Origin: an uncultured Bacteroidales bacterium
GTDB taxonomy: Bacteria; Bacteroidota; Bacteroidia; Bacteroidales; JAAYJT01
Length of the DNA stretch: 64,000 nucleotides
Assembly: GCA_964349765.1 (NCBI GenBank)
Contig: CAYGGZ010000002.1
Coordinates: forward strand, 99,151 to 163,150
Direction of reading: 5' to 3'
A program made the translations under genes and the position numbers. Of this stretch, positions 16,346-62,995 are shown piece by piece (position 1 is the stretch's first letter; every line of letters starts with the position of its first letter). The notes under the pieces were generated by a model. The model worked only from the letters and a program-made list of their open reading frames with translations. It made no database searches and had not been told where the DNA came from.

Positions 16346-16437
16346 CCCGAATTTAATCAAGAGAAAATCCGTTAGGACCGAACTATTGGTTCTATGAGTG
16401 CATACCCGATCATGCATTGTCAAATGCTTAATCGGGG
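16346..16437 (+). repeat. Intergenic structured repeat, copy C (diverged, short 3' hairpin)
   Basis: The sequence is cccgaatttaatcaagagaaaatccgttaggaccgaactattggttctatgagtgcatacccgatcatgcattgtcaaatgcttaatcgggg. It is colinear with the 123-bp element at 23543 and 25728. It fills the gap between the convergent trkH-2 and T9SS-cargo stops. Confidence 0.7.
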
Positions 16438-16442
16438 TTAAA

Positions 16443-17372
16443 TTATCGTACTACTACCACCCTTGCCGTTAGCTTTTGCTTCCCCAGTAGTACTTCGAGA
16501 ATAAAAATACCCGGCGGAAGCGAAATTACATCCAATTCAAATCTTTCCACACCACCAGGAACATTTTTACTGATCAACTCCCTACCCGTTAGCGAAAGTA
16601 ATCTTAATAAAGCGCTTTCCTGTGTAACTGAAGGAAAAACGACGGTTAGCCCCGAGCTGGCCGGGTTCGGAAAGATTGTCAGCAAACCTTTATCGTTTTC
16701 ACCAATGCTGGTCACTCCATAATAATAACAATCAGGAAACTGCGGGCTGTGGTAAATTAATGCCGATTGATGGCTGAAGCAAGATAGTGTTAATGCATCC
16801 GGAAACTCCTGATTAAATAGTTTGGCCGTTATTGGAAACAATGGTCCATGAACGCTGCCAATGCCTTCAATCCAGGTTTCTTTCATACTCGTGTTGTAAT
16901 AAACCACAGGCGAAAAATTAAACCGACGGCGGTACTGCCCGTCTATCACCACACTGTCAATTGATTGAAGAAAAAGATCGTAGTGTGCTCCACAACAAAA
17001 CTGATAAAACTTCACCGTGTCGCCCGGTTGTATATTGAAATCATACATCACCGTTGGGTGAATCTGGCCATCGCTCATGAAATAAACAACTCCATTAGCT
17101 GCGTACACATGCCCCCTGAAGATGTTCGACGGATCGCCAGGTACAAACACCGAAGTATTGTTCTCATAAATTCTGCTCCACAACTGATTATCAATCAATG
17201 TATCGCCATCGTATGAATAGGTCCAGGTTACCAGACCAGAACCAGGGGGATTGCCCGGCAGCGGGTACTCCTGCACAACCATCCAATTAGCATCCGACAC
17301 AGGAAAAGCTATCCCCTGAGCTACAGAAGCCACACCATGAAGCGTAAATAAGAATGAAAATATGATTCTCAT
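16443..17372 (-). CDS. Secreted protein with T9SS (Por) C-terminal sorting domain
   Basis: There is an N-terminal signal peptide (MRIIFSFLFTLHGVASVAQG). The C-terminus ...LTIFPNPASSGLTVVF...LLSLTGRELIS...LPPGIFILEVLL...VVVVR matches the type A T9SS CTD pattern. Confidence 0.8.
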   Translation of the reverse strand: MRIIFSFLFTLHGVASVAQGIAFPVSDANWMVVQEYPLPGNPPGSGLVTWTYSYDGDTLIDNQLWSRIYENNTSVFVPGDPSNIFRGHVYAANGVVYFMSDGQIHPTVMYDFNIQPGDTVKFYQFCCGAHYDLFLQSIDSVVIDGQYRRRFNFSPVVYYNTSMKETWIEGIGSVHGPLFPITAKLFNQEFPDALTLSCFSHQSALIYHSPQFPDCYYYGVTSIGENDKGLLTIFPNPASSGLTVVFPSVTQESALLRLLSLTGRELISKNVPGGVERFELDVISLPPGIFILEVLLGKQKLTARVVVVR

Positions 17373-17511
17373 ACCGTTTTTGTTTTAATTTGCTGTTTGA
17401 TTTTGCAAATATATGAAATGATGTAACAATTGAGATGATTAAATGATTTCTCACATGACACTTAACCAGCATATTTTAAAGTTTTTCAGGAAATGAACTT
17501 ATCACACCGTA

Positions 17512-18834
17512 ATGCCATCTAATCGCTACATCTGGGGAATTGCTTATCCGATAATTCTAAGCCTTCTGGCTCAGAATATGATTAATGTTGCCGACACAGC
17601 GTTCCTTGGGCGTGTGGGAGAAGTAGAGCTTGGCGCTGCCGCTATTGCAGGAATTTTTTATATCGTGCTTTACATGGTCGGGTTTGGCTTCAGCATGGGA
17701 GCACAAATTCTGATGGGGCGCCGTAATGGTGAGGGAAACCTGAAACAAGTAGGCAATATAATGGACCACAGCCTATATTTTTTATTGATTATAGGAATTG
17801 TGATGTTCGTTGCCATCTACTTTTTCGCCGGCCAAATGCTCCGTCCATTTATAACTTCCGATGCTGTATATGAAGCCTCAGTGGTGTATCTTCAATACCG
17901 CGTTTACGGTGTGTTCTTTGCTTTTTTCAATGTAATGTCGCGTGCATTTTTTATATCTATTCAGCGAACTCGACTGCTTACAGTAAGCGCCGCTTTGATG
18001 GCAACCGTAAATGTGATCCTCAACTATTTGCTTATTTTCGGGCATTGGGGATTCCCGGCCATGGGTATTGCGGGTGCGGCTATCGCTTCTGCAATTGCTG
18101 AAGGATGCTCGGCTCTGTTTTTTATGATCTATTTCCGGTTTTTTTCCAACCGCAAGCAGTATGCCCTGTTCCGCTTTCCAAAAGTAAGCTTTGTTGTAAT
18201 CAGGCAAACCCTTGATGTTTCAGTTTTTGTGATGATCCAATATCTGCTTTCACTCGGCGCATGGTTTCTTTTCTTTGTTATTATCGAAAAGATGGGCGAA
18301 CGATCGCTGGCCGTTTCTAATATTGTGCGAAGCCTATACATGATATTGATGATCCCCGTGTGGGCTTTCAGCAGTACGGCAAATACGCTTGTAACCAACG
18401 CTATTGGTCAGAAAAAAACAAATCTGGTTCTGCCTGTGCTCCTTAAAGTAACAAAGCTGTCGTTCTTATCGTCGGTAGCCATGGTTCTGCCAATGCTGAT
18501 GATTCCGCGGTTGCTTATTAGCATTTACACTAACGATGCTTCGCTGGTTGACGACTCTATAGGGTCGATTTACATGATTTTTGGCGCAACCTTAATGTTT
18601 TCCATCTCACAGGTGTTTTTCAGTGGCGTTTCAGGAACCGGAAACACCCGCGATGCTCTGATCATTGAGTCTTTTGCACTGGCCATTTATCTGATCATAA
18701 TATATATGATTGTCATTCAATGGAGTTTGCCAATAACAGTAGCGTGGTTATGCGAACATGTATATTTTTTGATCTTAGGGAGCGCTTCCTGGATTTATCT
18801 ACGTTCAGGCAGGTGGCAAGGGAAAAAGATATGA
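17512..18834 (+). CDS. MATE family efflux transporter
   Basis: The 440-aa, 12-TM-like protein begins ...GIAYPIILSLLAQNMINVADTAFLGRVGEVELGAAAIAG..., typical of MATE/NorM. Confidence 0.85.
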   Translation: MPSNRYIWGIAYPIILSLLAQNMINVADTAFLGRVGEVELGAAAIAGIFYIVLYMVGFGFSMGAQILMGRRNGEGNLKQVGNIMDHSLYFLLIIGIVMFVAIYFFAGQMLRPFITSDAVYEASVVYLQYRVYGVFFAFFNVMSRAFFISIQRTRLLTVSAALMATVNVILNYLLIFGHWGFPAMGIAGAAIASAIAEGCSALFFMIYFRFFSNRKQYALFRFPKVSFVVIRQTLDVSVFVMIQYLLSLGAWFLFFVIIEKMGERSLAVSNIVRSLYMILMIPVWAFSSTANTLVTNAIGQKKTNLVLPVLLKVTKLSFLSSVAMVLPMLMIPRLLISIYTNDASLVDDSIGSIYMIFGATLMFSISQVFFSGVSGTGNTRDALIIESFALAIYLIIIYMIVIQWSLPITVAWLCEHVYFLILGSASWIYLRSGRWQGKKI

Positions 18835-18853
18835 GTTACCGAACCAAATTGGT

Positions 18854-18861
18854 TATTTTTG
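18854..18861 (+). promoter_or_regulatory. Candidate -7 promoter motif TAttTTTG
   Basis: TAnnTTTG match 20 nt upstream of ATG 18881. Confidence 0.4.
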
Positions 18862-18880
18862 CCCGTTAAAACCGTTAACA

Positions 18881-19651
18881 ATGGTTCCACTGTCGGTGGT
18901 CATCATCTCAGGTAATGAAGAACGCAACATTGCACGCTGTCTCGATTCTGTTATAGCCATTGCTGATGAGATCGTGGTGATAGACTCATTTTCAACCGAT
19001 CGAACACAAGAGATATGCCGATCCTATGGAGTGCGTATCGTCCAAAATCCCTGGCCAGGGTATATTGAGCAGAAAAATCTTGCACTCAGCCATGCCAGAA
19101 ACCAATGGGTGCTATCACTTGATGCCGATGAAGCTCTTAGCCACGAGTTGAAGCAATCAATATCATCGGTTATTGAAAATCCTGAGGCTGACGGCTATTC
19201 TATGAATCGTCTTACAAACTACTGCGGTAAATGGATTAAGCATGGTGGGTGGTATCCTGACCGAAAAGTACGCTTATTTAAACGCCATAATGTACGCTGG
19301 GGAGGCACAAATCCTCACGATCGAATCATCCTGGCACAAGGAGCAAAAGTGGTTCATCTTAAAGGCGACATATTGCATTATTCCTTCTACTCCCTGTCGG
19401 ATCATATACGCCAGATTAATCATTTTTCGGAAGTGGCTGCACAAGCATTGTATGAAAAAGGAGTACGAAGCAATCAGCTGAAGCTGATAATCAAACCCTA
19501 TGTCAGGTTCATAAAAAGTTATCTCCTGCAAAGAGGATTCCTCGATGGATATTACGGCTACCTCATAGCGCGTAATTCGGCTTTTGCTTCTTTTGCCCGC
19601 TACGCCAAGCTAAGAGAGTTGCAACGCCTTAATAGCGGAGGCAATAGATGA
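18881..19651 (+). CDS. Glycosyltransferase family 2
   Basis: LSVVIISGNEERNIARCLDS...IVVIDSFSTDRT...LSLDADE (DxD) gives a GT-A fold N-terminus. Confidence 0.85.
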   Translation: MVPLSVVIISGNEERNIARCLDSVIAIADEIVVIDSFSTDRTQEICRSYGVRIVQNPWPGYIEQKNLALSHARNQWVLSLDADEALSHELKQSISSVIENPEADGYSMNRLTNYCGKWIKHGGWYPDRKVRLFKRHNVRWGGTNPHDRIILAQGAKVVHLKGDILHYSFYSLSDHIRQINHFSEVAAQALYEKGVRSNQLKLIIKPYVRFIKSYLLQRGFLDGYYGYLIARNSAFASFARYAKLRELQRLNSGGNR

Positions 19652-20784
19652 AAGTTATCCATGTTTCAACTGCAAAAAGCTGGCGTGGCGGCGAACAACA
19701 ACTTGCATACCTGCTCGGAGCATTTCTTTCGGATACTGAAATTCAGTCGCATGTTTTGTGTCGCCGCAAGGGAGCTATAGCAAAATATTGCGAACAGAAA
19801 GGAATTGCTTATTCTACATTTGATGGTAGAGGCTCCTTTAATCTTTCGGCCGCCTTGAAACTCCTCCGTATTTGTAACAAATCAGGCAAATGCCTTATTC
19901 ACACCCACGACAGCCATGCCCATTCAATAGCCTTTATCGCAGCAACCCTCTTTGGGAACCTATCGCCAGTGATTGTTCATCGGCGTGTTGATTTTCGTGC
20001 AGGAGCCGGGTTCATTTCGAGAAAAAAATACAACCATAGATGCATTGCCCGATATATATGTGTTTCAAATGCGATTCGAGATATTCTTTTACCTTCCCTT
20101 TCGCACCCCGAAAAAGCTATTGTGATTCCCAGCGGTATTGATCCGGAGCGGTTCGCACAAACTAAAAATTCATCAGAGCTAAGATCTAAGTTTGGCATTT
20201 CGCCGTGTGCTCCATTGATTGGAAATATTGCAGCGCTTGCACCCCATAAGGATCATTTCACTTTTCTTCGAACTGCCTCCATCCTACACCAAAGGAATCC
20301 GGAAATGCGTTTTGTTATTGTTGGGCACGGGGCAATGCGCAAACAATTATTAAAGGCAATCGAAGAAATGATGCTTCAGAACATTTTGTTTCTTGCTGGG
20401 TTCAAGGAAAATATCCCTGCTATAATTAAAGAATTTGATCTATTTTTGATGACTTCAAAAACCGAAGGGCTTGGAACTACTCTTCTCGACGCCTTTGCAG
20501 CAGGAATACCAGTAGTATCAACCAATGCCGGTGGCATAGGCGAGATTGTAGAACATGGCCATACTGGTTTGCTCGCTCCCGTAGGGAATGCAGAATCCCT
20601 TGCCCGGCTGGTTGAAGAGGTAATGAATAATCCCGACTTGAAAGATAGAATCATACATCAGGCAAAGCTTCGTGCCGACGAGAATCACTTCCGGATTACA
20701 GCCGGGAAAATAAAAAATGAATACCTCCTAGTGGCCAAACAAGCGTTTTGTACAGACCAAACAGCGGCATATGGCAAAGAGTAA
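19648..20784 (+). CDS. Glycosyltransferase family 4 (GT-B, group 1)
   Basis: MKVIHVSTAKSWRGGEQQ... together with the C-terminal ...SKTEGLGTTLLDAFAAGIPVVSTNAGGIGEIVEHGHTGLL (EX7E region). It overlaps the upstream GT2 by 4 nt. Confidence 0.85.
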   Translation: MKVIHVSTAKSWRGGEQQLAYLLGAFLSDTEIQSHVLCRRKGAIAKYCEQKGIAYSTFDGRGSFNLSAALKLLRICNKSGKCLIHTHDSHAHSIAFIAATLFGNLSPVIVHRRVDFRAGAGFISRKKYNHRCIARYICVSNAIRDILLPSLSHPEKAIVIPSGIDPERFAQTKNSSELRSKFGISPCAPLIGNIAALAPHKDHFTFLRTASILHQRNPEMRFVIVGHGAMRKQLLKAIEEMMLQNILFLAGFKENIPAIIKEFDLFLMTSKTEGLGTTLLDAFAAGIPVVSTNAGGIGEIVEHGHTGLLAPVGNAESLARLVEEVMNNPDLKDRIIHQAKLRADENHFRITAGKIKNEYLLVAKQAFCTDQTAAYGKE

Positions 20785-21763
20785 ATTGGATAGTGAGTGG
20801 TTCGTAATTGTGAATCCAAACGCAGGTGCTCGAAAAGGCGAAAGGGATTGGCCAAATATTGCCAAAATGCTTGACAAGGCCGGTGTACCATTCAACCATA
20901 TCCTTACTCAGCACCGCCTTCACGCTCTCAGATTAACACGCAAATTCATCGAAATGGGTTACCGGAACCTCATTGTTGTTGGCGGCGACGGTACCCTGAA
21001 TGAAGTTGTTAACGGAATTTTCACTCAAAACAAATACCCTCCCGAAACTGTTACAATTGGAGTTATTCCCGTAGGAACCGGTAATGACTGGTGCAAAATG
21101 TTTGGAATACCCCACGATTATGAATCGGCAATCAGGTTGATTATCGAAGGGAAAACTTACTTGCAGGATGTTGGCTGGGTGAAATTTTCCCAGGCTGGGA
21201 TCGAAAAAAACCGTTACTTCGCTAACATGACCGGAATGGGCTACGATGCACTAGTAGCCGAAAAAACAAATAAACAGAAAGACCGCGGAAAAGGCGGTCC
21301 TTTGTCATACTTCTACAATATTTTTATCAGCCTTTTCTCCTTCAAAGAGTCGCAGACCGAAATCATTGTTGATGATGTCGAATCGCTCAAAGCGCCTGTT
21401 TTTACAATGAATGTAGGCATTTGCAAATATAATGGCGGCGGTATGATGCAACTCCCCTTCGCTGTAGCCGACGACGGCAAGCTTGATATGACCGTGATCA
21501 CAAAACTAAGCCGTTTTACAGTAGTAAGAAGCATTAGAAAACTTTTCGATGGAACTTTTATCAGGCTCCCGCAGGTTCACACGTTTCAAGGAAAAATTTT
21601 TGAAGTGAAAGCCGATCCGCCGCTTTTTATCGAGGTTGACGGGGAATCGCTCGGGCACTCACCTTTCAGGTTCGGCCTTGTACCCAAAAGCTTGCGAATT
21701 GTGGTTGGAAAAGATATGGAGGCTGCTTCTGTTAACGTGAAGACTGTTCCTCGATCAGCGTGA
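20771..21763 (+). CDS. Diacylglycerol kinase family lipid kinase (YegS-like)
   Basis: WFVIVNPNAGARKG...LIVVGGDGTLNEVVNG...IPVGTGNDW are DAGK catalytic-domain motifs. Confidence 0.85.
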   Translation: MAKSKLDSEWFVIVNPNAGARKGERDWPNIAKMLDKAGVPFNHILTQHRLHALRLTRKFIEMGYRNLIVVGGDGTLNEVVNGIFTQNKYPPETVTIGVIPVGTGNDWCKMFGIPHDYESAIRLIIEGKTYLQDVGWVKFSQAGIEKNRYFANMTGMGYDALVAEKTNKQKDRGKGGPLSYFYNIFISLFSFKESQTEIIVDDVESLKAPVFTMNVGICKYNGGGMMQLPFAVADDGKLDMTVITKLSRFTVVRSIRKLFDGTFIRLPQVHTFQGKIFEVKADPPLFIEVDGESLGHSPFRFGLVPKSLRIVVGKDMEAASVNVKTVPRSA

Positions 21764-23489: not shown

Positions 23490-23542
23490 AGCGTTGTATT
23501 ATCTCAATCCTGCAAAAATAATGATCTTTGAGATCATAAAAT

Positions 23543-23665
23543 TTTATCCCGAATTAATCAATAGAAAGTCCGTTAGGGCTGAACTATTGATTCCATGAGG
23601 GTAATCCCGATTTAGTGTTTGTTTAGTGCAATTTTTATTGTGCTAATTACAAACACTTAATCGGG
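23543..23665 (+). repeat. Intergenic structured repeat, copy A (123 bp, identical to copy B); left boundary of the island
   Basis: I compared it base by base with 25728-25850 and found 123/123 identical. It contains a 5' hairpin (aatcaatag 23556-23564 / ctattgatt 23584-23592). It also has a long 3' hairpin (cccgatttagtgtttgt 23606-23622 / acaaacacttaatcggg 23649-23665) with a nested hairpin in its loop. Confidence 0.9.
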
Positions 23666-23994
23666 ATTAAAAGGCAGTTTACTAATTCATAGCCCAAAAT
23701 CTGGTTCTCATTTCTGCCTTCCGGTACTATGCTCACACGCCACAGACACGAATTTGAACGGCTTGCCGGCTACCTGTTCCGGAAACTCAGAAAAGCTTTC
23801 GGTAACCATCAGGATGGCCGTAATAATGTTACGGAACAAGGGTTTTTCCGCTTCATTGCGCCTCCATTTCAAGAGTGTGTGTTAGCAGAATTCCAGTAAG
23901 ATTCGGCAAAATGTTGAAAAAACTTCAAAAATTCCACTTAATTGTTCAACATTGGAAATTATATTTATATATTTGGTTCAGATTTCAACCGCCT

Positions 23995-24465
23995 ATGTTT
24001 AGCGTTCAAAAAATATGGCACTGCGAGGCTTACCTTACCGGTATCTTTTTGGGTTTTGATGAAGGTTTGAAGCAAATCGTAAAGAAAACCAGTGCCCTAT
24101 GGAGCCGCACTCACTGGAGTTGGTATTTGGACTATAATGCAGAAAGTTGCAGTAAAATCAAAGAAGTATTTCCTGATCATCGGGTTGTTAAAAATTCGAA
24201 AGACAAGACTCCAGTGCCTGCTGTGATGCAAAACCTGCTTGAAGCATGGGACGGCCTCAGATTCATACAAGCTTTACCCGGACACAGCAGTATCAAGACC
24301 ACTACCATCTATGCCCATCTCACAAAAAAAAAGTTTACAGAAAGGATAATCAGCTCGTTAGGTCGGCTAATGGAAGAACTGAACACTTCAAAAAACACTG
24401 AAAAGTGTCTGGTTCGTAAAGATATTTACTATATACCACTAATGCTGTCGGACAGCGCAATTTGA
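23995..24465 (+). pseudogene. Tyrosine recombinase/integrase remnant with internal deletion
   Basis: The N-terminal segment ...FLGFDEGLKQIVKKTSALWSRTHWSWYLDYNAESCSKIKEVF resembles the N-terminal domain of Bacteroidota integrases. It joins directly to the extreme C-terminal motif ...LRFIQALPGHSSIKTTTIYAHLTKKKF (the LGHssikTTeiYtH Tyr motif). The roughly 250-aa catalytic core between them is missing. Confidence 0.6.
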
Positions 24466-24513
24466 TACAGACGAACATTTAATGAATTAATCGAAACTAA
24501 AAAAATAAAGACG

Positions 24514-25623
24514 ATGGACTTTAAAGACTACATTAAGCAAATTGGTGAAAGAGTTGTAAAACTAAAGGACCAAATCCAGACAGAGGAAGCAACAAAGAAT
24601 GCGTTTATCATGCCGTTTTTACAAGCTTTGGGTTACGACGTTTTCAATCCACTCGAAGTTGTTCCCGAATACACAACTGACATTGGTACAAAAAAAGGAG
24701 AGAAAATCGACTATGCAATTTTTAAAGACGGTATCCCTACAATACTGGTCGAGTGCAAACATTGGGCTCAAAACCTAAATTTGCACGACGGACAGCTTTT
24801 ACGCTACTTCCATGTTTCTAAAGCAAAATTTGGACTTTTGACAAATGGCATAAATTACCGCTTTTACTCCGACTTGGTTGAACGAAACAAAATGGATGAA
24901 AAACCTTTCTTGGAGTTTAACATCTACGAGATAAAAGACAACCAAATTGAAGAACTCAAAAAGTTTCACAAAACAATATTTGATGCCGAAAGCATCGTAA
25001 ATACAGCAAGCGAATTAAAATACATAAATGAACTTAAACAGCTTTTCCAACAGGAATTGACAAATCCTTCGCCAGAGTTTGCAAAACATTTTGCACGTCA
25101 GGTTTATCCAACTTCAGTAACAGCAAAAGTATTAGAGCAATTTACGACGTTGACAAAGAGGTCAATGCAACAATATATCAGCGATTTAATCACTGAACGC
25201 CTAAAAACGGCATTGACAAAGGAAGACGAAGCAACCAAGGAGCAAGAAGTTAATCGAGCAGAGCAAGCAAAAGTTGAAGAGAGCAAAATTGTTACGACCC
25301 AAGACGAAATGGAAGGTTTTATGATTGTTAAAGCAATTCTGCGCCAAAAGATAAGCGTAACCAGAATTGCATTCAGGGACTCACAATCATATTTTTCAAT
25401 TCTGCTTGACGACAACAAACGCAAGACAATCTGCAGGCTTTATCTATACGGCAGCAAAAAATATTTGGCGACTCTTGACGATCAAAAGAAGGAAATCAAA
25501 AACGAGATTTCAAATCTGGACGACATTTTCAAATTCTCTGCAACACTTTTAAAAGTTGTTGAGAACTACGACCGTTCTATACTAGAGCCTAACGGACAAA
25601 AGAGCACTACTGTCAAGAAATAG
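24514..25623 (+). CDS. HsdR_N-type (type I restriction enzyme R N-terminal, PD-(D/E)xK) nuclease-domain protein
   Basis: The N-terminus is ...EEATKNAFIMPFLQALGYDVFNPLEVVPEY...GEKIDYAIFKDGIPTILVECKHW...QLLRYF...KFGLLTNGINYRFY, the D...(E)xK core typical of HsdR_N domain proteins. A charged coiled linker and a C-terminal domain I cannot assign follow. The gene looks AT-rich by eye. Confidence 0.7.
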   Translation: MDFKDYIKQIGERVVKLKDQIQTEEATKNAFIMPFLQALGYDVFNPLEVVPEYTTDIGTKKGEKIDYAIFKDGIPTILVECKHWAQNLNLHDGQLLRYFHVSKAKFGLLTNGINYRFYSDLVERNKMDEKPFLEFNIYEIKDNQIEELKKFHKTIFDAESIVNTASELKYINELKQLFQQELTNPSPEFAKHFARQVYPTSVTAKVLEQFTTLTKRSMQQYISDLITERLKTALTKEDEATKEQEVNRAEQAKVEESKIVTTQDEMEGFMIVKAILRQKISVTRIAFRDSQSYFSILLDDNKRKTICRLYLYGSKKYLATLDDQKKEIKNEISNLDDIFKFSATLLKVVENYDRSILEPNGQKSTTVKK

Positions 25624-25702
25624 GACTCTAAGCGGTCAGAGCAACCATGCGATAAATAGGTGTTGAACTACACCCACCAGGTTACTGGCTATTTGCTATC
25701 GG

Positions 25703-25727
25703 GCTGATTACAAACACTTATTCGGGG
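25703..25727 (+). repeat. Partial repeat unit (3' end only) abutting copy B head-to-tail
   Basis: ctgattacaaacacttattcgggg matches the last ~24 nt of the unit (ctaattacaaacacttaatcgggg) with 2 mismatches. It is followed directly by the start of copy B. Confidence 0.6.
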
Positions 25728-25850
25728 TTTATCCCGAATTAATCAATAGAAAGTCCGTTAGGGCTGAACTATTGATTCCATGAGGGTAATCCCGATTTAG
25801 TGTTTGTTTAGTGCAATTTTTATTGTGCTAATTACAAACACTTAATCGGG
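25728..25850 (+). repeat. Intergenic structured repeat, copy B (123 bp, identical to copy A); right boundary of the island
   Basis: It is identical to 23543-23665. The following gtttatc (25851-25857) resembles the first bases of another unit. Confidence 0.9.
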
Positions 25851-25899
25851 GTTTATCTAATCTGTAAAAATTTTTCTTGACTTGCACATCAAACTATAT

Positions 25900-25907
25900 T
25901 AATTTTG
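25900..25907 (+). promoter_or_regulatory. Candidate -7 promoter motif TAatTTTG
   Basis: TAnnTTTG match 34 nt upstream of ATG 25941. Confidence 0.4.
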
Positions 25908-25940
25908 CATTAATCTGTATTTCCCTTAAACCTAAAAAAA

Positions 25941-27008: not shown

Positions 27009-27054
27009 TGAATTTGAAACTTGTCAATTGATGTTAACCTGCTCAAGGGCTAAG

Positions 27055-27074
27055 GCTGGCCATAAAGCCAGCCG
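27055..27074 (+). terminator. Possible stem-loop terminator after the lipoprotein gene
   Basis: ggctggc cataaa gccagcc forms a 7-bp GC-rich stem. No clear U-tract follows. Confidence 0.3.
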
Positions 27075-27230
27075 TGGATTTCATAGTAAATAACTGATCT
27101 TAAACTGTTCGTTCGAATTGAGTTTTGGGGTCTAACAATAGCTTTCACTTCTGCCGTCTGTAGTACATTAATTTTCATTGCACTTTAAGTTGCGTGTAAT
27201 CCTGACCCTATTGCTATTAATGTTTTAAGT

Positions 27231-28019: not shown

Positions 28020-28023
28020 ACCG

Positions 28024-39645: not shown

Positions 39646-40815
39646 TTAGCGTATGCTTTTATAAGCATATTCAACTGCAGCAAAAAGCCGTTCAAAAACC
39701 TCCTTTTCAGCACCGCGGCCATCAACAGCGGTGTATTTACCTTGTTTGCGGTAATATTCGGAAACCGGTAATGTTTTGGTTTCATGTTCTTCGAGCCGGT
39801 GAATTATCATATCGGTGGTCATATCGTAGCTTCTTCGTTTTTCGGTTTTACTACGCGCCGAAAGACGCTTAATCAGCTCAAGCGTAGGAACCTGAAGGTC
39901 AATGGCATACGAAACCGTAGAGTTCATGCGACGCAGCAAGCCGTCGAGTATATAGGCCTGAACGATGCTACGCGGAAATCCCTTAAAAATGAACCCACTT
40001 ACGTTAGGATGATCTTTTATTTCCCTTTCGATCAGCGGGATAGCAATATCGTCGGGAACAATCTCACCACGGTCAAGAAAAGGCCTTGCCAGTTGTCCGA
40101 TAGGGGTTTTTTTGTCTATCTCTTTTCTTAGCATCGATCCGGTAGAGATGTAAAACAGGTTGAACCGGTCGGCAAGGTATTTGGCCTGCGTTCCTTTACC
40201 TGCTCCCGGCGGGCCGGATATCACAAGGTTGAACCACACTTGCTGAAGCGTTTCGTCAATGGCTTGTGTCAATCGTGCGAACACCTCATCAATTGTTCCA
40301 ACGCCATTAATAGGAAAGTATTTGCCTTTTTCTTTGTAGAACTCGGCTACCGGAATAGTTTTAATATCGTATTCCTTGAACCTGTTTGCGATTATCTCTT
40401 TTTTATCGTCGTTGCGACCCTCAATTTCATACCTTTCAAGTACACGCTTGAGCAGTAATTCCCTGGGAGCATCAAGGCTGAGCATACATGTAAGAGAGCT
40501 TCCCAATTTTAGAAGCAAACCTTCTAAAATGTATGCCTGAACTACAGTTCTTGGAAACCCATCGAATAAAATACCATTTGTATCGAGTTCCTTATGGATT
40601 TTATTCTCAATAATTTGCACAATGATCTCATCGGAGGCCAAGCCTCCTTTTTCTATCTGCGCCTTTGCCTGCATTCCGAGTGCTGACTTGTTTGCTATCT
40701 CCTGCCGCAGGATATCTCCCGTTGAGATGTATGTCAGATTGTATTTTTCGACGAGTTTTTTTGATTGTGTTCCTTTTCCGGCGCCTGGGGGGCCAAAAAG
40801 AGCGATGTTCAACAT
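39646..40815 (-). CDS. adk: Tandem (two-domain) adenylate kinase fusion
   Basis: The 389-aa product has two complete Adk-like halves. The first spans aa 1-193 (40237-40815): FGPPGAGKGTQ, STGDILR, DGFPRT, GRNDD. The second spans aa 194-389 (39649-40236): SGPPGAGKGTQ, STGSMLR, KGFPRS, with the LID reading KRRSYD. By eye the halves are roughly 40% identical. Confidence 0.85.
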   Translation of the reverse strand: MLNIALFGPPGAGKGTQSKKLVEKYNLTYISTGDILRQEIANKSALGMQAKAQIEKGGLASDEIIVQIIENKIHKELDTNGILFDGFPRTVVQAYILEGLLLKLGSSLTCMLSLDAPRELLLKRVLERYEIEGRNDDKKEIIANRFKEYDIKTIPVAEFYKEKGKYFPINGVGTIDEVFARLTQAIDETLQQVWFNLVISGPPGAGKGTQAKYLADRFNLFYISTGSMLRKEIDKKTPIGQLARPFLDRGEIVPDDIAIPLIEREIKDHPNVSGFIFKGFPRSIVQAYILDGLLRRMNSTVSYAIDLQVPTLELIKRLSARSKTEKRRSYDMTTDMIIHRLEEHETKTLPVSEYYRKQGKYTAVDGRGAEKEVFERLFAAVEYAYKSIR

Positions 40816-41367: not shown

Positions 41368-41503
41368 TTATCCTCGTTATTTTATCTGAACAGCCTCAGT
41401 TTTAATCCCTTGTTTATATTAAAAATCTTTTGAGCGGTTTAATTGCAAACCTACAAAAAAATGGTTCGTAATAATTTTTACTGCAAAAATGCAGAAATAG
41501 ATT

Positions 41504-41562
41504 AACCCAGACGTACTTAATAGTTCTGCACTAACGGTCTTTTAATTGATTAATCCGGGTTT
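41504..41562 (-). repeat. Intergenic structured repeat, copy E (5' module only, diverged, minus orientation)
   Basis: The reverse complement aaacccggattaatcaattaaaagaccgttagtgcagaactattaagtacgtctgggtt aligns colinearly with the first ~60 nt of the 123-bp unit. It lies 35 nt downstream of the minus-strand O-methyltransferase stop. Confidence 0.5.
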
Positions 41563-41597
41563 AACTGTCAGTGGTAACCGGGTGCAAAGCAAAATTG

Positions 41598-50216: not shown

Positions 50217-50844
50217 ACCCTCTCCTTCACAAATTATTGCGCTATCGGTTGTTTTTCTGTATAAAATCCTGTGCATGTGGCTTTTAAGCAATAAGTCAAG
50301 ATTAACTGTTAATAGATATCACTAAAACTTGCAGGCAAAGCTCCCCATATTACTTACATCGGTATTGTTGATTTAATTTTGACCTTCAACACTCTATGTG
50401 AGTTTTGTCCTGAAACCCAATAGCCTCAACAATTATTGAAGCTGGAACCCGGAAACGTGGCTATACAATGGGAAGCTTTACAATAACTTAACCCTCTGTG
50501 CAGTAAAAATAACGGTCATATTGTGGTCAGAAATCGAAAAAATTTCACAGCATCGAATGAAATCATGATTATACATTTATACTATTTCAATATTACAACC
50601 TATATCTCTCTGATTTACAATATAAATGTCGTCTTGTTAAAAAATCCCACAATAAATTAACAATTATTAACATTTTTTTGCAACTTTTGATTTTTGTATT
50701 ATATTAGCGCCCTTATTATCGAAAATAAAGAAAGAAATGAAACAAGCTTACGGAAAACTATGTTCAACGAAAATATAATCAATGATCGAAGGAGTCTTTA
50801 TGTTTAACTAAAGTTTAATTATTTCTAACAAAAACCATTTAATT

Positions 50845-54114: not shown

Positions 54115-54144
54115 TACATGTTGAATTAAATAAATAGATAAACT

Positions 54145-55569: not shown

Positions 55570-55585
55570 GTTAAACATACTTGAC

Positions 55586-55623
55586 AAAAAGAGGCTGCCC
55601 AAAAAGGCAGCCTCTTTTATTTT
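55586..55623. terminator. Bidirectional rho-independent terminator
   Basis: aaaaa gaggctgcc caaaaa ggcagcctc ttttatttt has a 9-bp GC-rich stem (55591-55599 / 55606-55614) flanked by A- and T-runs. It sits between the convergent SusD-like and M23 genes. Confidence 0.8.
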
Positions 55624-55673
55624 GGCATTATGACCCGGTGGGGCTTAGTTCGGTGCTAAAGCACACATGTTTA

Positions 55674-56930: not shown

Positions 56931-57078
56931 TTTGCAGTAGTTACTTGCTTTACAATTAAAATTTTAGTGCTCGCCAGGTTTGAACCATATAACACACGTT
57001 GACCCTTCAAGCCACTTTAACAATGTTTAAATGAGTGATTTATTGCCCTACTCTATGAAAATTCTGTGTTGCTAACGC

Positions 57079-57666
57079 CTATTTGCCTTTATGTTCCATA
57101 GAAAAGTTTACTCCTGCCCGGAAGCAACGCAGGTTTATTTCGACAATATCGTCGCCTTTCCGACCAAACATTTTACGGATAGCTTTCTCTAACAATTCCT
57201 CCGGAATTCCAAGATGCGGAGAGGCCGCCCCCAGGATCACGATGTTGGCAGATCGGGATGAGCCGAGCTCTCTGGCAATCAGATCAGCATCAATGGCCAC
57301 ATGGTGAGGGAGTTTTGCTATTTCTTCCAGAATTTTTTCAATCTGTGGATAGTTGCTAATGTTGACAAACGGCGTAGTGTTTGTAATCAGCCATCCGCCG
57401 CTTGCAAGCATAGGCAAATAGCGCAACGATTCCATTGGTTCAACCGAGATAATCATATCTGCCTTGCCCTTGGGAATCAGATCACTGGCGATTTCTTTAT
57501 CTGAGATCCGCAGATTCGACTGCACATCGCCGCCGCGTTGGCTCATACCATGCACTTCGGATTGTTTCAGGTGCAGCCCCATACCCAGAGCAGCCATACC
57601 TATTGTAGCCGCGATTGATAAGATGCCTTGCCCTCCGACACCTGCTAATATTATATCCTTTTTCAT
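57079..57666 (-). CDS. iorB: Indolepyruvate ferredoxin oxidoreductase subunit beta
   Basis: The 195-aa product reads ...ILAGVGGQGILSIA...SEVHGMSQRGG.... It lies directly downstream of iorA. Confidence 0.88.
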   Translation of the reverse strand: MKKDIILAGVGGQGILSIAATIGMAALGMGLHLKQSEVHGMSQRGGDVQSNLRISDKEIASDLIPKGKADMIISVEPMESLRYLPMLASGGWLITNTTPFVNISNYPQIEKILEEIAKLPHHVAIDADLIARELGSSRSANIVILGAASPHLGIPEELLEKAIRKMFGRKGDDIVEINLRCFRAGVNFSMEHKGK

Positions 57667-57687
57667 GCTAAACGGAATTGTGGTTAA

Positions 57688-59292
57688 TTAATCAGATTTG
57701 CGCTTTTCTTTTAATTTCTTTTTTGCCGTTACGATACACTCACGACGGGGAATTATCACAGAAACACCCGTGTAAGCAATCTCTTTCTTCATTATTTTGA
57801 GGTTTTCTTCATGATTCTTTGGAATAGGATTGATAACATGGATATGTTCTTTCTCAACCCCAATTGCCTGACAAACATCCTCAATCCTTCCCAGTGCCGC
57901 AGAAGGTTGCCCTCCCGTCATTGCTGTTGTGGCGTTATCAAGAATAAATACTGTTATGTTTGCCTTATCAACAACTGCATCGAGGAGCCCGGTTATTCCT
58001 GAATGGGCGAATGTTGAATCGCCTATAACAGCTACGGCTGGGGTCAAACCAGCATCTGCCGCACCTTTTGCCATGGTTATGGAGGCACCCATATCAACAC
58101 ATGAGTTAATTGCATCAAATGGAGCTAAAGCTCCAAGCGTATAGCAGCCGATGTCGGAAAACACACGACCCTTGCCATAATCCTCAAGCGCTTGATTAAT
58201 GGCATTGTAGGAATAAATGTGAGGGCAACCCTTACATAGCGATGGCGGCCGGGGAGCTACAATAGTGGGGACCGGATTACCCCATTCATCTTTCATGCCA
58301 AGCGCTACAGCAACAATATTGGGATTGAGTTCCCCATCGCGGGGAACAGTTCCATCAAGTCTGCCTTTGATCTTTTTACCATGGTTCAAAATTCCGCGTA
58401 TAAGTTCTTCAAGCAGCGGGTATCCATCTTCGAGTACAAGGATTGAATCACAGTCGTCGTACATTCTTCGAATCATAGCTGATGGGGCAGGATATTGACC
58501 GATTTTAAGTACCGGATAAGGACTTACACGATCGGGAAAGTTCTCAAACAAATAATTATATGCTAATCCGCAAGCTATGATGCCCATACTTTTGTCGGTT
58601 CCATCAATGTAAACGTTGAATGGCGATTGTTCTGAACCGGCTTCGAAGAGCGCCTGTTGCTGAAGCAATCTCTTGTATTGCTGGCGTGCAATTGAAGGCA
58701 GCAACACAAACTGTTTCGGGTTGGCAGGAATACGAACCGTATTTTGTTCACGCTTTGGTTTTAAAGTTACGCCGGCTCTTGAATGGGCAAGTCTGGTTGT
58801 AATACGAATCAACACCGGTATTCCATGTTTTTCAGATATGTCGAATCCATGAAATACCATGTCGTAAGCTTCCTGCTGCCCGGCAGGCTCAAGGATCGGA
58901 ATCATGGCAAACTTTCCATAAAATCGTGAATCCTGTTCATTTTGCGATGAGTGCATTGAGGGATCATCGGCTGCCACAATTACCAATCCGCCGTTGGCTC
59001 CTGTAATAGCAGAATTTATGAAGGCATCGGCGGCTACATTTAACCCTACATGTTTCATGCAAGTCATAGTGCGCTTTCCTGCATACGACATTCCCAGCGC
59101 CCCTTCCATTGCAGTTTTTTCATTGGCCGTCCAAAAAGCCCTGACATTCTTTTCTTTTGCTTCCTTTGAGGCAGCAACATATTCGGTTATCTCAGTTGAA
59201 GGAGTACCCGGATAAGCATAGATGCCTGAAATTCCGGCATCTATTGCTGCCTGAGCTATTGCTTCGTCACCCAATAATAGTATCTTATTCAT
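57688..59292 (-). CDS. iorA: Indolepyruvate ferredoxin oxidoreductase subunit alpha
   Basis: The 534-aa product has ...LLGDEAIAQAAIDAGISGIYAYPGTPSTEI..., a TPP-binding ...GDSTFAHSGITGL..., and a Cys motif CKGCPH. Confidence 0.9.
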   Translation of the reverse strand: MNKILLLGDEAIAQAAIDAGISGIYAYPGTPSTEITEYVAASKEAKEKNVRAFWTANEKTAMEGALGMSYAGKRTMTCMKHVGLNVAADAFINSAITGANGGLVIVAADDPSMHSSQNEQDSRFYGKFAMIPILEPAGQQEAYDMVFHGFDISEKHGIPVLIRITTRLAHSRAGVTLKPKREQNTVRIPANPKQFVLLPSIARQQYKRLLQQQALFEAGSEQSPFNVYIDGTDKSMGIIACGLAYNYLFENFPDRVSPYPVLKIGQYPAPSAMIRRMYDDCDSILVLEDGYPLLEELIRGILNHGKKIKGRLDGTVPRDGELNPNIVAVALGMKDEWGNPVPTIVAPRPPSLCKGCPHIYSYNAINQALEDYGKGRVFSDIGCYTLGALAPFDAINSCVDMGASITMAKGAADAGLTPAVAVIGDSTFAHSGITGLLDAVVDKANITVFILDNATTAMTGGQPSAALGRIEDVCQAIGVEKEHIHVINPIPKNHEENLKIMKKEIAYTGVSVIIPRRECIVTAKKKLKEKRKSD

Positions 59293-59558
59293 AATCAGCA
59301 GGCTGTTATTTAATTATTAATACTGTTAAGCTAATTTAATTTATCATCTGCATAACATCATCATACTATGAACCCGAAAAACGGTTCAAAAACTCCCGTG
59401 CACAAAACTATGAAAAAAGGTAACCCGCCTATAGGACGGGTGTTTTTATTAATTAAATTACCGCAATCATAAACAATTCTTCAGATTGCAAGTCAGTATT
59501 ACTGTAAAACCAGACGGGAGAATTGTAATTTAGCCTGATCAATCAGTAAAAAACCGTC

Positions 59559-60203
59559 ATGAACTTCCTTGCTCATGCCTATTTGTCGGGAAACAATAGT
59601 GAGATACTCATTGGCAACTTTATTGCCGATCATGTCAAGGGAAAAATGTTCGAACGTTATTCAAGTGAAATCCAAAAGGGAGTTATACTCCACCGCCGAA
59701 TTGATTCTTTTTCCGATAGCCATCCAGTATTTCGGCAAAGCGTGGCACGGCTCAGGTGGGAATTCGGAAAATATTCAGGAGTTTTAGTTGATATGTTCTA
59801 CGACCACTTTTTAGCCCGAAACTGGAAAGATTATTCTGAAATTCCTCTCAAAACTTTTACATCAGCGGTTTACAATACCCTGATGCGACGTTTTCTGATA
59901 TTGCCTGCGAAAACCAAACGAATGTTACCATTCATGCTGGCCGACGATTGGTTAGCAGGATATGCCTACCTCGAAGGGTTGAATCTTGCCCTTTCTGGTA
60001 TGGCGCGCCGAACCAATTTTTATTCAGGAATGGAATACGGCGTGGAATCGCTTAAGCAAAATTATAATCAGTTCGAAGAAGAATTCACTCTGTTTTTTCA
60101 TGACCTCCGTAACGATGTTCTTGTGTTTAACAAAACATTAAGCGAACCTGAATACAACTTACCAAGCCTGGCAATCAATTACGACCCAAGCCAATCCCTG
60201 TAA
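59559..60203 (+). CDS. acpH: Acyl carrier protein phosphodiesterase
   Basis: MNFLAHAYLSGNNSEILIGNFIADHVKG...ILHRRIDSFSDSH... is the AcpH family N-terminal signature. Confidence 0.85.
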   Translation: MNFLAHAYLSGNNSEILIGNFIADHVKGKMFERYSSEIQKGVILHRRIDSFSDSHPVFRQSVARLRWEFGKYSGVLVDMFYDHFLARNWKDYSEIPLKTFTSAVYNTLMRRFLILPAKTKRMLPFMLADDWLAGYAYLEGLNLALSGMARRTNFYSGMEYGVESLKQNYNQFEEEFTLFFHDLRNDVLVFNKTLSEPEYNLPSLAINYDPSQSL

Positions 60204-60497
60204 CATATGCCTTTCTATCTGCCATCTGAATGCTTGATTCATGCAAATAAATACTCTTAAAATGCGAGTTTTGAATCTACCATTCCGGAAAGGAAACGTT
60301 TAAGTTTTTCCAACAGGCGATGCTTAAAGATGTTTGGTCATGTTTTGCTCCTGTGGGGGTGTGTTATACAATTTTGTTGAATGGAAGCGTTATTAAATTC
60401 CAGGTGCCAGTAAGCAGGCAAAATGCTTTTTACTGTAAAACTGTATAAAACTGTTCAAAGTAATACTATTCACGAGCACTGGTATATCATATATCGT

Positions 60498-60505
60498 TAC
60501 TTTTG
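60498..60505 (+). promoter_or_regulatory. Candidate -7 promoter motif TActTTTG
   Basis: TAnnTTTG match 27 nt upstream of ATG 60532. Confidence 0.45.
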
Positions 60506-60531
60506 CGCGCTACAATAATTTAACGTTTCCA

Positions 60532-62859
60532 ATGTCTGGTTTTTACTTGTTCGCTTTCAGAAAACTTTTCATTGCCATAGTTTTCATGCTTCTCACACTG
60601 CAGGTGTATGCTCAAACCAGCACTCTTCGTGGATTTGTTTATGAAAAAGAAACCGGCGAGCCTATCATTTTTACAAATGTTTTCTTTTATAGAACCACCA
60701 TTGGTGCAGCTACGGATGTAAACGGTTATTTCGTCATATCTCGTATTCCTCCAGGTGATTACACTCTGATGGTATCCTTTATGGGATTCGACACATTGCG
60801 CATGCCCGTTACCCTTAAAGGGGGCGAAGTGTTAACAAAAAACCTCTATCTCACAAAAAGTGCTCTCGTTATTGAAGGAGTACATATCACTGCAGAGAGG
60901 GAGGAAGCACGATATGAAACCCGCACATCGGTAATAAATATCACACCACGGCAGATCAGACAATTGCCTGCATTCGGCGGCCAGGCCGACCTTGCCCAAT
61001 ACCTTCAGGTATTGCCCGGGGTAATCTTCACAGGCGATCAGGGCGGGCAACTCTATATACGAGGCGGCCCACCTATACAAAATAAAGTTTTGCTCGACGG
61101 AATGATTATCTACAATCCCTTTCATTCCATTGGGATGTTCTCGGTTTTCGACACTGATATTATCCGCAATGTGGAAGTACACACCGGGGGATTCAATGCA
61201 GAATATGGCGGGCGGATCTCATCGGTGATGAGCATTACTACACGCGACGGAAACCGAAACCGCTTCGCTGGCAAGGCTGATATATCAACAATTGGATCTA
61301 AATTGCTGCTCGAAGGACCCATTGTACGACTCGATGAAACAAATGATCGCAATTTTTCATCATCCTTCATACTCTCGGCTAAAAACTCCTTTCTGGACAG
61401 AAGTTCGAAGTTGTTCTACAATTATATCGACACGCTTGGCCTGCCCTATAGCTTCAGAGACCTGTATGCCAAAGTCTCATTGAATACAGGTAATGGTAGT
61501 AAAATTGACTTTCACGGCTTTAATTTCACCGATAACGTAAATTACCGCGCTGTGAGTGAAATCGGTTGGGACACTTACGGAGCTGGTATGAATTTTCTTG
61601 TGATCCCAGGTCAAACTCCCGCGCTGCTTGAAGGAAGCATTGCGTATTCAACCTACAAAATCACTATGCAAGAGGCTAATCAGCAGCCTCGTACAAGTGA
61701 GGTGAACGGATTTAATTTTGGACTGGGTTTTACATACTTTCTGGGTCGAAACCAAATAAAATATGGTATTGAGACCCGCGGGTTTTTTACGGATTTCAAT
61801 TTCTTTAATGCTGCAGGAGCGTTTATACGCCAAAATCAAAACACTACCGAACTGGCAGCCTATGTAAGATATAAGCATAGTATCGGGAAATGGCTTTTCG
61901 AACCCGGATTCAGGTTGCAGTGGTATGCTGCACTCAGTGAAGTATCGCCTGAGCCTCGGTTCGCAATGAAATTCAATGCAACGAACCATTTCAGATTAAA
62001 AATGGCCGCCGGATTATATTCCCAAAACCTGTTGAGCGCAACCTCCGACCGTGATGTTGTAAATCTCTTCTATGGCTTTTTATCCGGATCCGATAATTTG
62101 CCCCGCCAGTTCGACGGGCGAGATGTTACAAGCAAACTCCAGAGATCAGCTCATTTAATCGTTGGTTTGGAATATGATCTCACCGATCACCTATCAATGA
62201 ACCTTGAAGCCTATACAAAGGAATTTCCACAGCTCACTAACCTCAATCGCGACAAGATGTTTGAAGATACACCCGAATATGCCGACAAACCTGATCGACT
62301 GAAAAAGGACTTTATTGTTGAACGGGGTTCTGCCCGCGGTGTGGATCTAACGTTAAGCTACGACCATAGTGACCTGTATCTGTGGGCGGTGTACTCTCTG
62401 ACCTTCGTAAACCGGTATGATGACATCATCAATTATGTCCCCCATTTCGACCGTCGTCACAGCATAAACCTCGTAGCTACTTACCAGTTCGGACGCACCG
62501 ACAACTGGGAAGTAAGTACACGGTGGAATTTTGGAAGCGGCTTCCCATTCACACAATCGCAAGGGTATTTCGAGCAGCTTGTTTTCCCACAAGGTATCTT
62601 TACCGACTATACACGGTTAAACGGTATTCTCGGCATCATTTATGCCGACCTCAACAAGGGCAGGTTGAGCGACTATCACCGCCTCGACTTTAGCCTCCGA
62701 AACCGGCTTGACCTCGGCAAACACACCAAACTCGAATCAACCCTGAGCGTAACAAATGTCTATAACCGAAACAACATCTTTTACCTCGACCGTGTTACAG
62801 GAAACCGAATTGATCAATTACCCATAATGCCCAGCGTTGGATTAAGCTTGAGCTTCTGA
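60532..62859 (+). CDS. TonB-dependent receptor with N-terminal carboxypeptidase-regulatory-like domain
   Basis: It has a signal peptide, LRGFVYEKETGEPIIFTNV...GDYTLMVSFMGF (CarboxypepD_reg), a plug (...VLPGV...LYIRGG...NKVLLDGMIIYNPFH), a barrel, and a C-terminal ...GLSLSF. Confidence 0.88.
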   Translation: MSGFYLFAFRKLFIAIVFMLLTLQVYAQTSTLRGFVYEKETGEPIIFTNVFFYRTTIGAATDVNGYFVISRIPPGDYTLMVSFMGFDTLRMPVTLKGGEVLTKNLYLTKSALVIEGVHITAEREEARYETRTSVINITPRQIRQLPAFGGQADLAQYLQVLPGVIFTGDQGGQLYIRGGPPIQNKVLLDGMIIYNPFHSIGMFSVFDTDIIRNVEVHTGGFNAEYGGRISSVMSITTRDGNRNRFAGKADISTIGSKLLLEGPIVRLDETNDRNFSSSFILSAKNSFLDRSSKLFYNYIDTLGLPYSFRDLYAKVSLNTGNGSKIDFHGFNFTDNVNYRAVSEIGWDTYGAGMNFLVIPGQTPALLEGSIAYSTYKITMQEANQQPRTSEVNGFNFGLGFTYFLGRNQIKYGIETRGFFTDFNFFNAAGAFIRQNQNTTELAAYVRYKHSIGKWLFEPGFRLQWYAALSEVSPEPRFAMKFNATNHFRLKMAAGLYSQNLLSATSDRDVVNLFYGFLSGSDNLPRQFDGRDVTSKLQRSAHLIVGLEYDLTDHLSMNLEAYTKEFPQLTNLNRDKMFEDTPEYADKPDRLKKDFIVERGSARGVDLTLSYDHSDLYLWAVYSLTFVNRYDDIINYVPHFDRRHSINLVATYQFGRTDNWEVSTRWNFGSGFPFTQSQGYFEQLVFPQGIFTDYTRLNGILGIIYADLNKGRLSDYHRLDFSLRNRLDLGKHTKLESTLSVTNVYNRNNIFYLDRVTGNRIDQLPIMPSVGLSLSF

Positions 62860-62897
62860 AAAACTTTCCCGATAATACATCATTACATATCTGAAAA

Positions 62898-62995
62898 GCT
62901 GAACTATTGATTCCATGAGGGTAACACCGATTTGGTGTTTGTTTGGCGCAATTCCTAATGTGCTGATTACAAACACTTAATCGCGGATTAAGTGT
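62898..62995 (+). repeat. Intergenic structured repeat, copy D (3' module plus part of the 5' module)
   Basis: gctgaactattgattccatgagggtaacaccgatttggtgtttgtttggcgcaattcctaatgtgctgattacaaacacttaatcgcgg aligns with unit positions ~36-123, with about 10 substitutions. An extra perfect hairpin follows (acacttaat cgcgg attaagtgt, 62973-62995). It lies between the convergent TonB-receptor and dtd stops. Confidence 0.75.

Follow-up and report, generated by a model that had tools for sequence, protein, structure and literature searches.

A family of hairpin-built intergenic repeats, probably mobile, in an uncultured Bacteroidales bacterium and other lineages

The BOX elements of Streptococcus pneumoniae are modular, being composed of boxA, boxB and boxC with variable internal modules; they display a stable predicted RNA fold and are found in intergenic DNA near the ends of genes. 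They belong to another phylum than the repeat described here, to which they are likened by description only and with no claim of a sequence relation, and their mobilisation is likewise unsettled. Repetitive extragenic palindromic (REP) sequences are palindromes of 20-40 nt that carry GTAG or CGTC tags, and are located mainly in the gaps between convergent or unidirectional genes (PMC3733652). The subject of the present analysis is a repeat that occupies five sites in a 64,000-nucleotide stretch of DNA from an uncultured Bacteroidales bacterium (contig CAYGGZ010000002.1, positions 99,151 to 163,150; this entire stretch is referred to below as the window). The repeat probably represents a family of short, non-coding and non-autonomous mobile elements assembled from hairpin modules, resembling either miniature transposable elements with inverted repeats (MITEs) or REPs and bacterial interspersed mosaic elements (BIMEs). 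The family is previously uncatalogued, named MITEs having been compared by description only, and is common to several lineages.

Copies, empty sites and decay

A comparison with related genomes indicated that the repeats, which are designated copies A to E in the window, occupy sites that are empty elsewhere. The gap between ispG and a gene for a 355-aa protein is 59 nt long in a sister contig (L011, with orthologues of 75% identity) versus 2.45 kb in the window, where the extra DNA consists of copy A, an island of 2 kb, a repeat fragment (B') and copy B. When the flank to the right of copy B is joined to the flank to the left of copy A, the product aligns colinearly with the intergenic region of L011, in which the junction is represented by a single ATAAA (that is, TTTAT on the other strand). 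The convergent gap between trkH and a gene encoding a Por_Secre_tail domain spans 3 nt in a second relative (L097) versus 98 nt in the window, all of the latter being copy C. Neither profile nor covariance models detected a family member in the syntenic contigs, approximately 46 kb in total, of the three nearest relatives sampled.

An earlier note on this DNA, made from the sequence itself, had described five related copies. Upon re-reading of the sites all five were found to be present in or close to the places described, and their cores were refined as follows (the domains and the stems H2 to H7 are set out in the next section).

16346-16437, plus strand: copy C, composed of domain 1 and a short-variant domain 2 with the interior stem gcatt/aatgc; flanked by ATAAA (16341-16345) on the left and TTAAA (16438-16442) on the right.
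23548-23665, plus strand: copy A, a complete unit, with domain 1 at 23548-23601, a TAAT linker at 23602-23605 and domain 2 at 23606-23665; flanked by TTTAT (23543-23547) on the left and ATTAA on the right.
25697-25727, plus strand: B', a 31-nt partial copy that retains the H6 and H5 3' arms and the terminal ...TTCGGGG of an older unit.
25733-25851, plus strand: copy B, a complete unit of which 123 nt are the same as in copy A (100% identity); bordered left and right by TTTAT (25728-25732 and 25852-25856).
41506-41559, minus strand: copy E, a solo domain 1 (CCCGG...CTGGG) in which the inner stems have decayed; bordered by TTAAA (41560-41564, minus-strand reading) and TTAAT (41501-41505).
62868-62986, plus strand: copy D, of full length; the 5' half of its domain 1 is degenerate, and G-T wobbles occur in its domain 2.

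The recurrence of these sequences greatly exceeds chance: CCGTTAGNNNNGAACTATT matches the window four times versus 0.06 expected from shuffles, and ACAAACACTTAATCGGG, with up to three mismatches allowed, matches it eight times versus 0.16 expected from shuffles. BLAST E-values among family copies range from 1e-69 to 1e-4, and matches with nhmmer and the covariance model (1e-39 to 1e-8) recovered exactly the five sites and nothing else in the window. The repeat contains no open reading frame (ORF), since stop codons interrupt all six frames of copies A and B. The earlier note had left a search of Rfam to be made, and its outcome is that the repeat is not an already described Rfam family: the whole window yielded no match to Rfam 15 at the gathering threshold, and A/B as well as two further copies from other organisms (J1 and J2, introduced below) gave generic, chance-level hairpin matches only at E-values up to 10. 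BLAST searches of plasmid and phage collections found no similar DNA, and scans of virus contigs with two patterns returned chance matches only. A 20-base domain-1 pattern of the window subfamily gave one chance match, to coding sequence (L001), in species-representative genomes and no match in Joint Genome Institute (JGI) metagenomes; this pattern fits the window subfamily too narrowly, and would have overlooked copies F and G of the same species as well.

Those two copies were found beyond the window. Exact-protein look-ups retrieved the same region from several metagenome assemblies, together with about 10 kb on each side, and copy F was located 3.3 kb ahead of the window start (L005, 5397-5465). 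Beyond its domain 1 (L005, 5455-5520), copy F continues as CCCGATTAAG and then as a small hairpin, ATTGCT gattccgtt AGCAAT, which shares in its loop the CCGTTAG motif seen in H3 loops of the window type; this tail may be a further variant of domain 2 or a rearranged fragment. Copy G (L012, 10160 to 10066, minus strand) is carried by another contig of the same metagenome-assembled genome, and was reached via a marginal match in a protein collection, to a spurious ORF, of concatenated six-frame peptides of the repeat. The species thus contains seven sites in approximately 93 kb (five in the window plus F and G), or roughly one per 13 kb. Three contigs from MEGAHIT and Logan assemblies, L003 (1-81), L004 (1-27) and L090 (ends), stop inside copy A or B, as is expected because the sequence is repeated.

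A scan of JGI metagenomes with a motif from the junction of the two domains, CCATGAGGGTNANNCCGATT, returned 69 stretches, of which nine are real members of the family; L022, L038, L053, L079 and other pattern matches were rejected as coding-like DNA that matched by chance. The real members define two additional subfamilies, termed J and K. Subfamily J comprises three loci, J1 (L016, identical to L037 and L041), J2 (L030) and J3 (L043, identical to L017 and L024), and subfamily K comprises two, K1 (L069) and K2 (L050). The G+C content of the host contigs is 35-37% for J and 32% for K, compared with 43% for the window species, and at the DNA level the repeat is all that these contigs have in common with the window. 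The hosts of J are Bacteroidota, as indicated by genes for CHU_C and ribosomal protein Thx, and the neighbours of J and K copies are housekeeping genes with no transposase among them. For the window species, signs of Bacteroidota among the proteins encoded beside the repeats include a type IX secretion system (T9SS) sorting domain, SusC/SusD and (in relatives) GldN; the closest relatives of the window's IspG display 75% and then 57% identity. Directly after J1, which is truncated there (L016 1785-1830, and equally in L037 and L041), stands a G+C-rich perfect hairpin, cctgcctgccctgcc attc ggcaggcaggcggcagg; it may belong to another repeat, or it may serve the adjacent gene as a terminator.

The sequences that border individual copies are suggestive of target-site duplication. 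The left and right 5-mers are identical for B (TTTAT and TTTAT), J2 (TTTAT and TTTAT) and G (TTAAA and TTAAA), and differ by one base for C (ATAAA and TTAAA) and E (TTAAA and TTAAT); they are unmatched for D and for A taken alone, the outer flanks of the A-B block both being TTTAT. Because these 5-mers vary between copies of one subfamily, a 5-bp TTWAW duplication fits better than ends encoded by the element. A palindrome-associated element derived from IS200/IS605 would make no target duplication, insert 3' of a fixed tetra- or pentanucleotide and have a constant, element-encoded right end; within the window subfamily, by contrast, the 5-mer behind the right end varies (ATTAA, TTTAT, TTAAA or TTAAT), with a tendency towards the sequence of the left flank. 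Terminal CC or GGGG and 5-bp AT-rich duplications could also bring a Tn3-like or IS1380-like parentage to mind, for which no claim is made.

The copies also differ in their state of preservation. All stem positions are paired in A, J1 and J2 (100%), and nearly all in K1 (96%) and K2 (94%); the corresponding values range from 65 to 88% among C, D, E, F and G. Truncation affects E, F and J3, and only a fragment remains in B'. Taken with the empty sites and the flanks, the decay and truncation of most copies in the window genome point to a selfish element with a fold-dependent master copy, rather than to many separately selected RNAs.

Architecture, pairing and the folded strand

All subfamilies are built to one plan, in which two hairpin domains, each bracketed by CCC...GGG, meet at a conserved junction, CCATGAGGGTAAYCCCGATTTAGT. 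Read from its 5' end, a unit consists of a TTTAT or TTAAA flank, CCC, 5 nt, stem H2 around stem H3, CCATGA, GGG, TAAY and CCCGATTT; these are followed by H5 (9 bp) around the H6 hairpin, TWAATCG, an H7 hairpin that is found in J2 and K only, GGG and again a TTTAT or TTAAA flank. Domain 1, of about 54 nt, contains an H2 stem of 8-9 bp that encloses the 5-bp hairpin H3, and is connected by the TAAY linker to domain 2, which in the window subfamily is long in A, B and D and short in C and G; E, F and J3 are solo copies of domain 1. Unit lengths range from 54 to 150 nt, and the K composite reaches approximately 282 nt. The ends form imperfect terminal inverted repeats: the unit begins with CCCGAATTAATC and finishes with CTTAATCGGG, the reverse complement of the 3' end reads CCCGATTAAGTG, and domain 2 itself opens with the motif once more, as a direct copy and the third in all. 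Modules occur in tandem at B'-B. The 5' extension of the K composite (L069 1404-1483, plus strand, with an equivalent part in L050) is a diverged, domain-2-like hairpin in inverted orientation, which indicates that modules can be joined not only head to tail but also head to head.

The stems that had been described for the window copies were reproduced by folding, in which copy A reached -55.6 kcal/mol (z = -9.7); J2 reached -56.8 kcal/mol. The substitutions reported within those stems likewise proved correct, namely the swap of an interior stem to gcatt/aatgc in copy C and the changes of three A-T pairs to G-T and one T-G pair to C-G in copy D. The broader claim that substitutions preserve pairing was borne out, and gained greatly in strength with the inclusion of subfamilies J and K. 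In tests that used MAFFT alignments not fitted to structure, together with 500 shuffles, 84.2% of cells were paired in domain 1 versus 75.5% when shuffled, and 92.8% in domain 2 versus 77.9%, with none of the 500 shuffles as high in either case. Four H2 pairs were altered on both sides in domain 1, as were 10 of the 23 pairs in domain 2 (a result matched by one of 500 shuffles); when the 3' partner of domain 2 was slid by one to three columns, pairing amounted to 35-43%. The arms of H3 illustrate this behaviour, being AGTCC/GGGCT in A, AGTTC/GAACT in F, GTTCA/TGAAC in J and ATTTT/AAAAT in K.

Conservation of a two-domain fold and an unpaired junction in three subfamilies is also what would be anticipated if each copy were a small regulatory RNA gene with its own promoter, and the family a multicopy set of such RNAs. 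That explanation is nevertheless very improbable: the upstream flanks are unrelated except for the 5-mer and contain no promoter-like sequence at a fixed position, no terminator stands behind the copies, many of which are truncated or decayed, and Rfam holds no relative. Moreover, the covariation is found between subfamily masters and not among copies within a genome, which argues that the fold serves propagation and not an RNA function of each copy.

As a mobile repeat, the family may be envisaged to spread as follows. An enzyme whose gene lies at another place in the genome would amplify a structurally intact master copy, and new copies would land in AT-rich TTWAW pentanucleotides that are apparently duplicated upon insertion. 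The copies would then persist in intergenic gaps only, mostly at the 3' ends of genes, and decay there, and the fold (which is best on the plus strand) would be conserved because propagation requires it.

Several observations weigh against this picture. The covariation is drawn from three subfamilies only, and conservation of the junction is partly by construction, because J and K were found via a junction pattern. Agreement of the flanking 5-mers represents modest evidence, given the AT-rich context and the small number of copies. Strain-level contigs display no presence/absence polymorphism, the copies being identical in all of them, and neither a transposase nor a RAYT gene could be located in approximately 106 kb of the species (part of its genome only) or beside the J and K copies. 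Because no such gene turned up, mobility is something that we infer, and transposition as the mode of spread, like target-site duplication, should be read as suggested by the empty sites and flanks. Finally, a count of wobble pairs in hand-registered stems over all copies gave 17 G-U pairs versus 7 A-C pairs on the plus strand (an A-C on the plus strand would read as G-U on the minus strand), and 10 versus 0 when only A, G, J1, J2, K1 and K2, which are better preserved, are counted. Such a bias points to an RNA or single-stranded DNA stage, whereas a transposase acting on double-stranded DNA predicts none. The predicted folds agree with it: of 11 copies, 8 fold more stably on the plus strand (A, D, E, G, J1, J2, J3 and K2), with a tie in C, F and K1; the suggestion in the earlier note that the plus-sense strand is the one that folds therefore holds on both energies and wobble counts.

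These strand effects are what would be seen if a selfish repeat were moved as single-stranded DNA by an HUH tyrosine transposase (either a RAYT acting on REPs and REPINs, or an enzyme of the IS200/IS605 type) that recognises hairpins of the plus strand. Stems that covary while their sequence is free, modules joined in tandem and in inverted orientation as in BIMEs, and a location in convergent or unidirectional gaps that agrees with that of REPs (PMC3733652) would also follow. Such a mode of transfer is still unlikely, as the module ends lack a GTAG or CGTC tag (neither GTAG nor CTAC occurs in the units, and CGTC appears solely as a private substitution in copy G) and the modules measure 54-100 nt rather than 20-40 nt. 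In addition, the right 5-mer covaries with the left within one subfamily, in the manner of target duplications, of which HUH elements make none, and the sequence examined contains no Y1 transposase. Between the two kinds of enzyme, a slight preference goes to a DDE transposase that works upon double-stranded ends over a single-strand HUH enzyme.

A further possibility, which we regard as unlikely, is that the repeats constitute a new class of element whose working form is a folded single strand. It draws upon compensatory change in every stem across the three subfamilies, the invariant unpaired junction and wobble pairs that fit the plus strand only. The element could then be mobile, passing through an RNA or single-stranded DNA intermediate with the aid of a kind of enzyme that has yet to be connected with such repeats in Bacteroidota, or it could be a widespread functional RNA that is incidentally multicopy.

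Gene context and the island between copies A and B

All 13 loci are intergenic. Copies C, D, F, K1 and K2 are located in convergent gaps; B, E and J2 are in sense orientation relative to the upstream gene; G and J1 are antisense, between two genes of the same strand; J3 is antisense to its upstream gene; and copy A occupies a divergent gap, on the promoter side of ispG. The earlier note had placed B, C, D and E downstream of a gene of the same sense, and C and D in convergent gaps. This is correct within the window and fails as a general rule beyond it, because G, J1 and J3 are antisense to their upstream genes.

Such placement bears directly upon the question of whether the repeats are primarily cis-acting RNA structures of the 3' untranslated region (UTR), that is, stabilising stem-loops or terminators (including bidirectional ones) that are kept for their function. 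Most copies do lie just past stop codons, five of them in convergent gaps and B, E and J2 in sense, and the very stable folds of A and J2 and the plus-strand bias of the wobbles are of the kind that such structures would display. A primary role of this type is nonetheless quite unlikely, given the antisense orientation of G, J1 and J3, the promoter-side position of copy A, the absence of the element from the orthologous gaps of relatives and the broken stems and truncations among copies within the genome. The hairpins are followed not by a U-tract but by ATTAA, TTTAT or TTAAA tails, and a terminator scan left the main hairpins of A, B and C unflagged, its total number of sites being equal to the shuffle expectation; for want of a U-tract, the hairpins do not qualify as canonical intrinsic terminators. 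Of the three options that had originally been offered (a terminator or RNA-stability element, a mobile repeat of REP or MITE type, or a small RNA), the mobile repeat is the one sustained by the empty sites, decay, flanking 5-mers, patchy taxonomic distribution and mixed orientation. The terminator is not, for want of U-tracts and of a consistent orientation, and an effect on neighbouring transcripts is possible but secondary.

In the window, copy C occupies the entire interval from the trkH stop codon (16342-16344) to that of the Por_Secre_tail gene (16443-16445). Copy A stands 54 nt upstream of ispG, which is divergent, B' abuts the TTTAT that precedes copy B, and copy B has an HSDR_N gene upstream and the gene for the 355-aa protein downstream. 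Copy E lies between an O-methyltransferase gene and hpt, both on the minus strand, and copy D starts 9 nt past the stop of a gene for a TonB-dependent receptor (gene end 62859), with the convergent dtd ending at 63018. Two further features of the surrounding genes were noted. The trkH gene beside copy C is one of two tandem paralogues (13421-16344), in which a 250-nt stretch is 73% identical at an offset of 1460 nt; a tandem pair is also present in relative L100, and L097 has one trkH. At 39646-40815, on the minus strand, a 389-aa protein with two tandem adenylate-kinase domains, apparently a fused duplicate, is encoded, and is kept in L097.

Copies A and B are direct repeats 2185 nt apart, and the DNA between them contains the following features.

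23666-25696, plus strand: the island of approximately 2 kb between A and B, absent from the sister contig L011.
23875-24465: ORF of a tyrosine recombinase remnant of Xer/integron type, internally deleted.
24514-25623: an intact gene of 369 aa with an HSDR_N domain, PD-(D/E)XK-like.

In the recombinase pseudogene, an N-terminal piece continues in frame into the final ~45 aa, which include the catalytic-Tyr motif ...HSSIKTTTIYAHL, and the C-terminal ~36 aa of the pseudogene alone match models of the Xer/integron type. The island gave no match in PADLOC, and an exact-protein look-up placed the HSDR_N protein at one locus only. The identity of A and B, together with their matching outer TTTAT flanks, is in keeping with the splitting of what was originally one copy, into which a circular DNA bearing another copy could have recombined, either homologously or via the now-dead recombinase.

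An alternative reading of the same block is that the repeats are attC-like or dif-like recombination sites for a tyrosine recombinase, and that A, island and B constitute a gene cassette. The arrangement is reminiscent of one, with identical direct repeats around a 2-kb insert in which a recombinase remnant comes first, followed by one gene and then a repeat, and with TTTAT on both outer sides as from one split copy. We consider this highly unlikely, as the block is the sole case among the 13 loci and other copies stand alone beside housekeeping genes; conserved RYYYAAC / GTTRRRY cores are missing, and the GTTAGGG loop of the window subfamily is lost in J and K; the recombinase is a dead fragment, and the HSDR_N protein has its one exact occurrence here; and homologous recombination between two repeat copies explains the arrangement equally well. 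Identity with attC was rejected, the core sites being missing. The A-island-B block is a single case, and is not taken as the family's mode of spread.

Significance and comparison with described systems

Repeats of this kind interrupt metagenome assembly, and here, where three contigs end inside copies, they limit contiguity in the lineage; they also seed homologous recombination, of which A-island-B is a likely example, and furnish housekeeping genes with strong stem-loops at their 3' ends. With a model of the family, assembly and annotation would become easier for a Bacteroidales lineage in which the nearest sampled relative has 75% IspG identity. One architecture that is found across organisms of 32-44% G+C and is missing in the closest relatives would offer a way into the study of horizontal spread, and searches of complete genomes for the family would help to identify the mobilising enzyme. 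On present evidence no new category of biology is opened; the points worth following are the strand-biased wobble pairs and the missing mobilising enzyme.

With integron attC sites, the repeats have in common a similar length (57-141 nt), imperfect hairpins in which structure and not sequence is conserved, strand-specific folding and a position 3' of genes, and the A/B pair flanks a gene beside the remnant of an integron/Xer-like recombinase. They differ in having no R''/R' core sites, in forming no arrays and in being scattered among housekeeping genes in either orientation.

With the RAYT-mobilised REP, BIME and REPIN sequences (PMC3733652), they share the form of extragenic imperfect palindromes that are single, tandem or inverted, a hairpin shape that is kept while the sequence drifts, and one strand that folds better than the other. 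Placement is comparable as well, with five copies in convergent gaps, five between, or downstream of, genes of the same direction (B, E, G, J1 and J2) and one in a divergent gap, in addition to the tandem B'-B and the inverted K module. However, the modules, at 54-100 nt, are two to four times longer than REPs, and are accompanied by 5-mers that resemble target duplications.

MITEs, such as the Correia/NEMIS elements of Neisseria, ERIC, RUP and the MITEs of Porphyromonas gingivalis (PMC4596501), are likewise short, non-coding, multicopy and intergenic, with imperfect terminal inverted repeats, apparent short AT-rich target duplications and a stable fold when transcribed, and they too have decayed or truncated copies and cause breaks in short-read assemblies. 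The present repeats are shorter than ~500 nt, have no coding capacity, end in terminal inverted repeats and are dispersed, with presence and absence between relatives. They depart from MITEs in that no parent insertion sequence with the same ends is found in approximately 106 kb of the species, and in that hairpin modules of the form CCC...GGG are concatenated, rather than one pair of ends enclosing a spacer; between subfamilies, moreover, their stems covary, and their wobble pairs are biased towards one strand.

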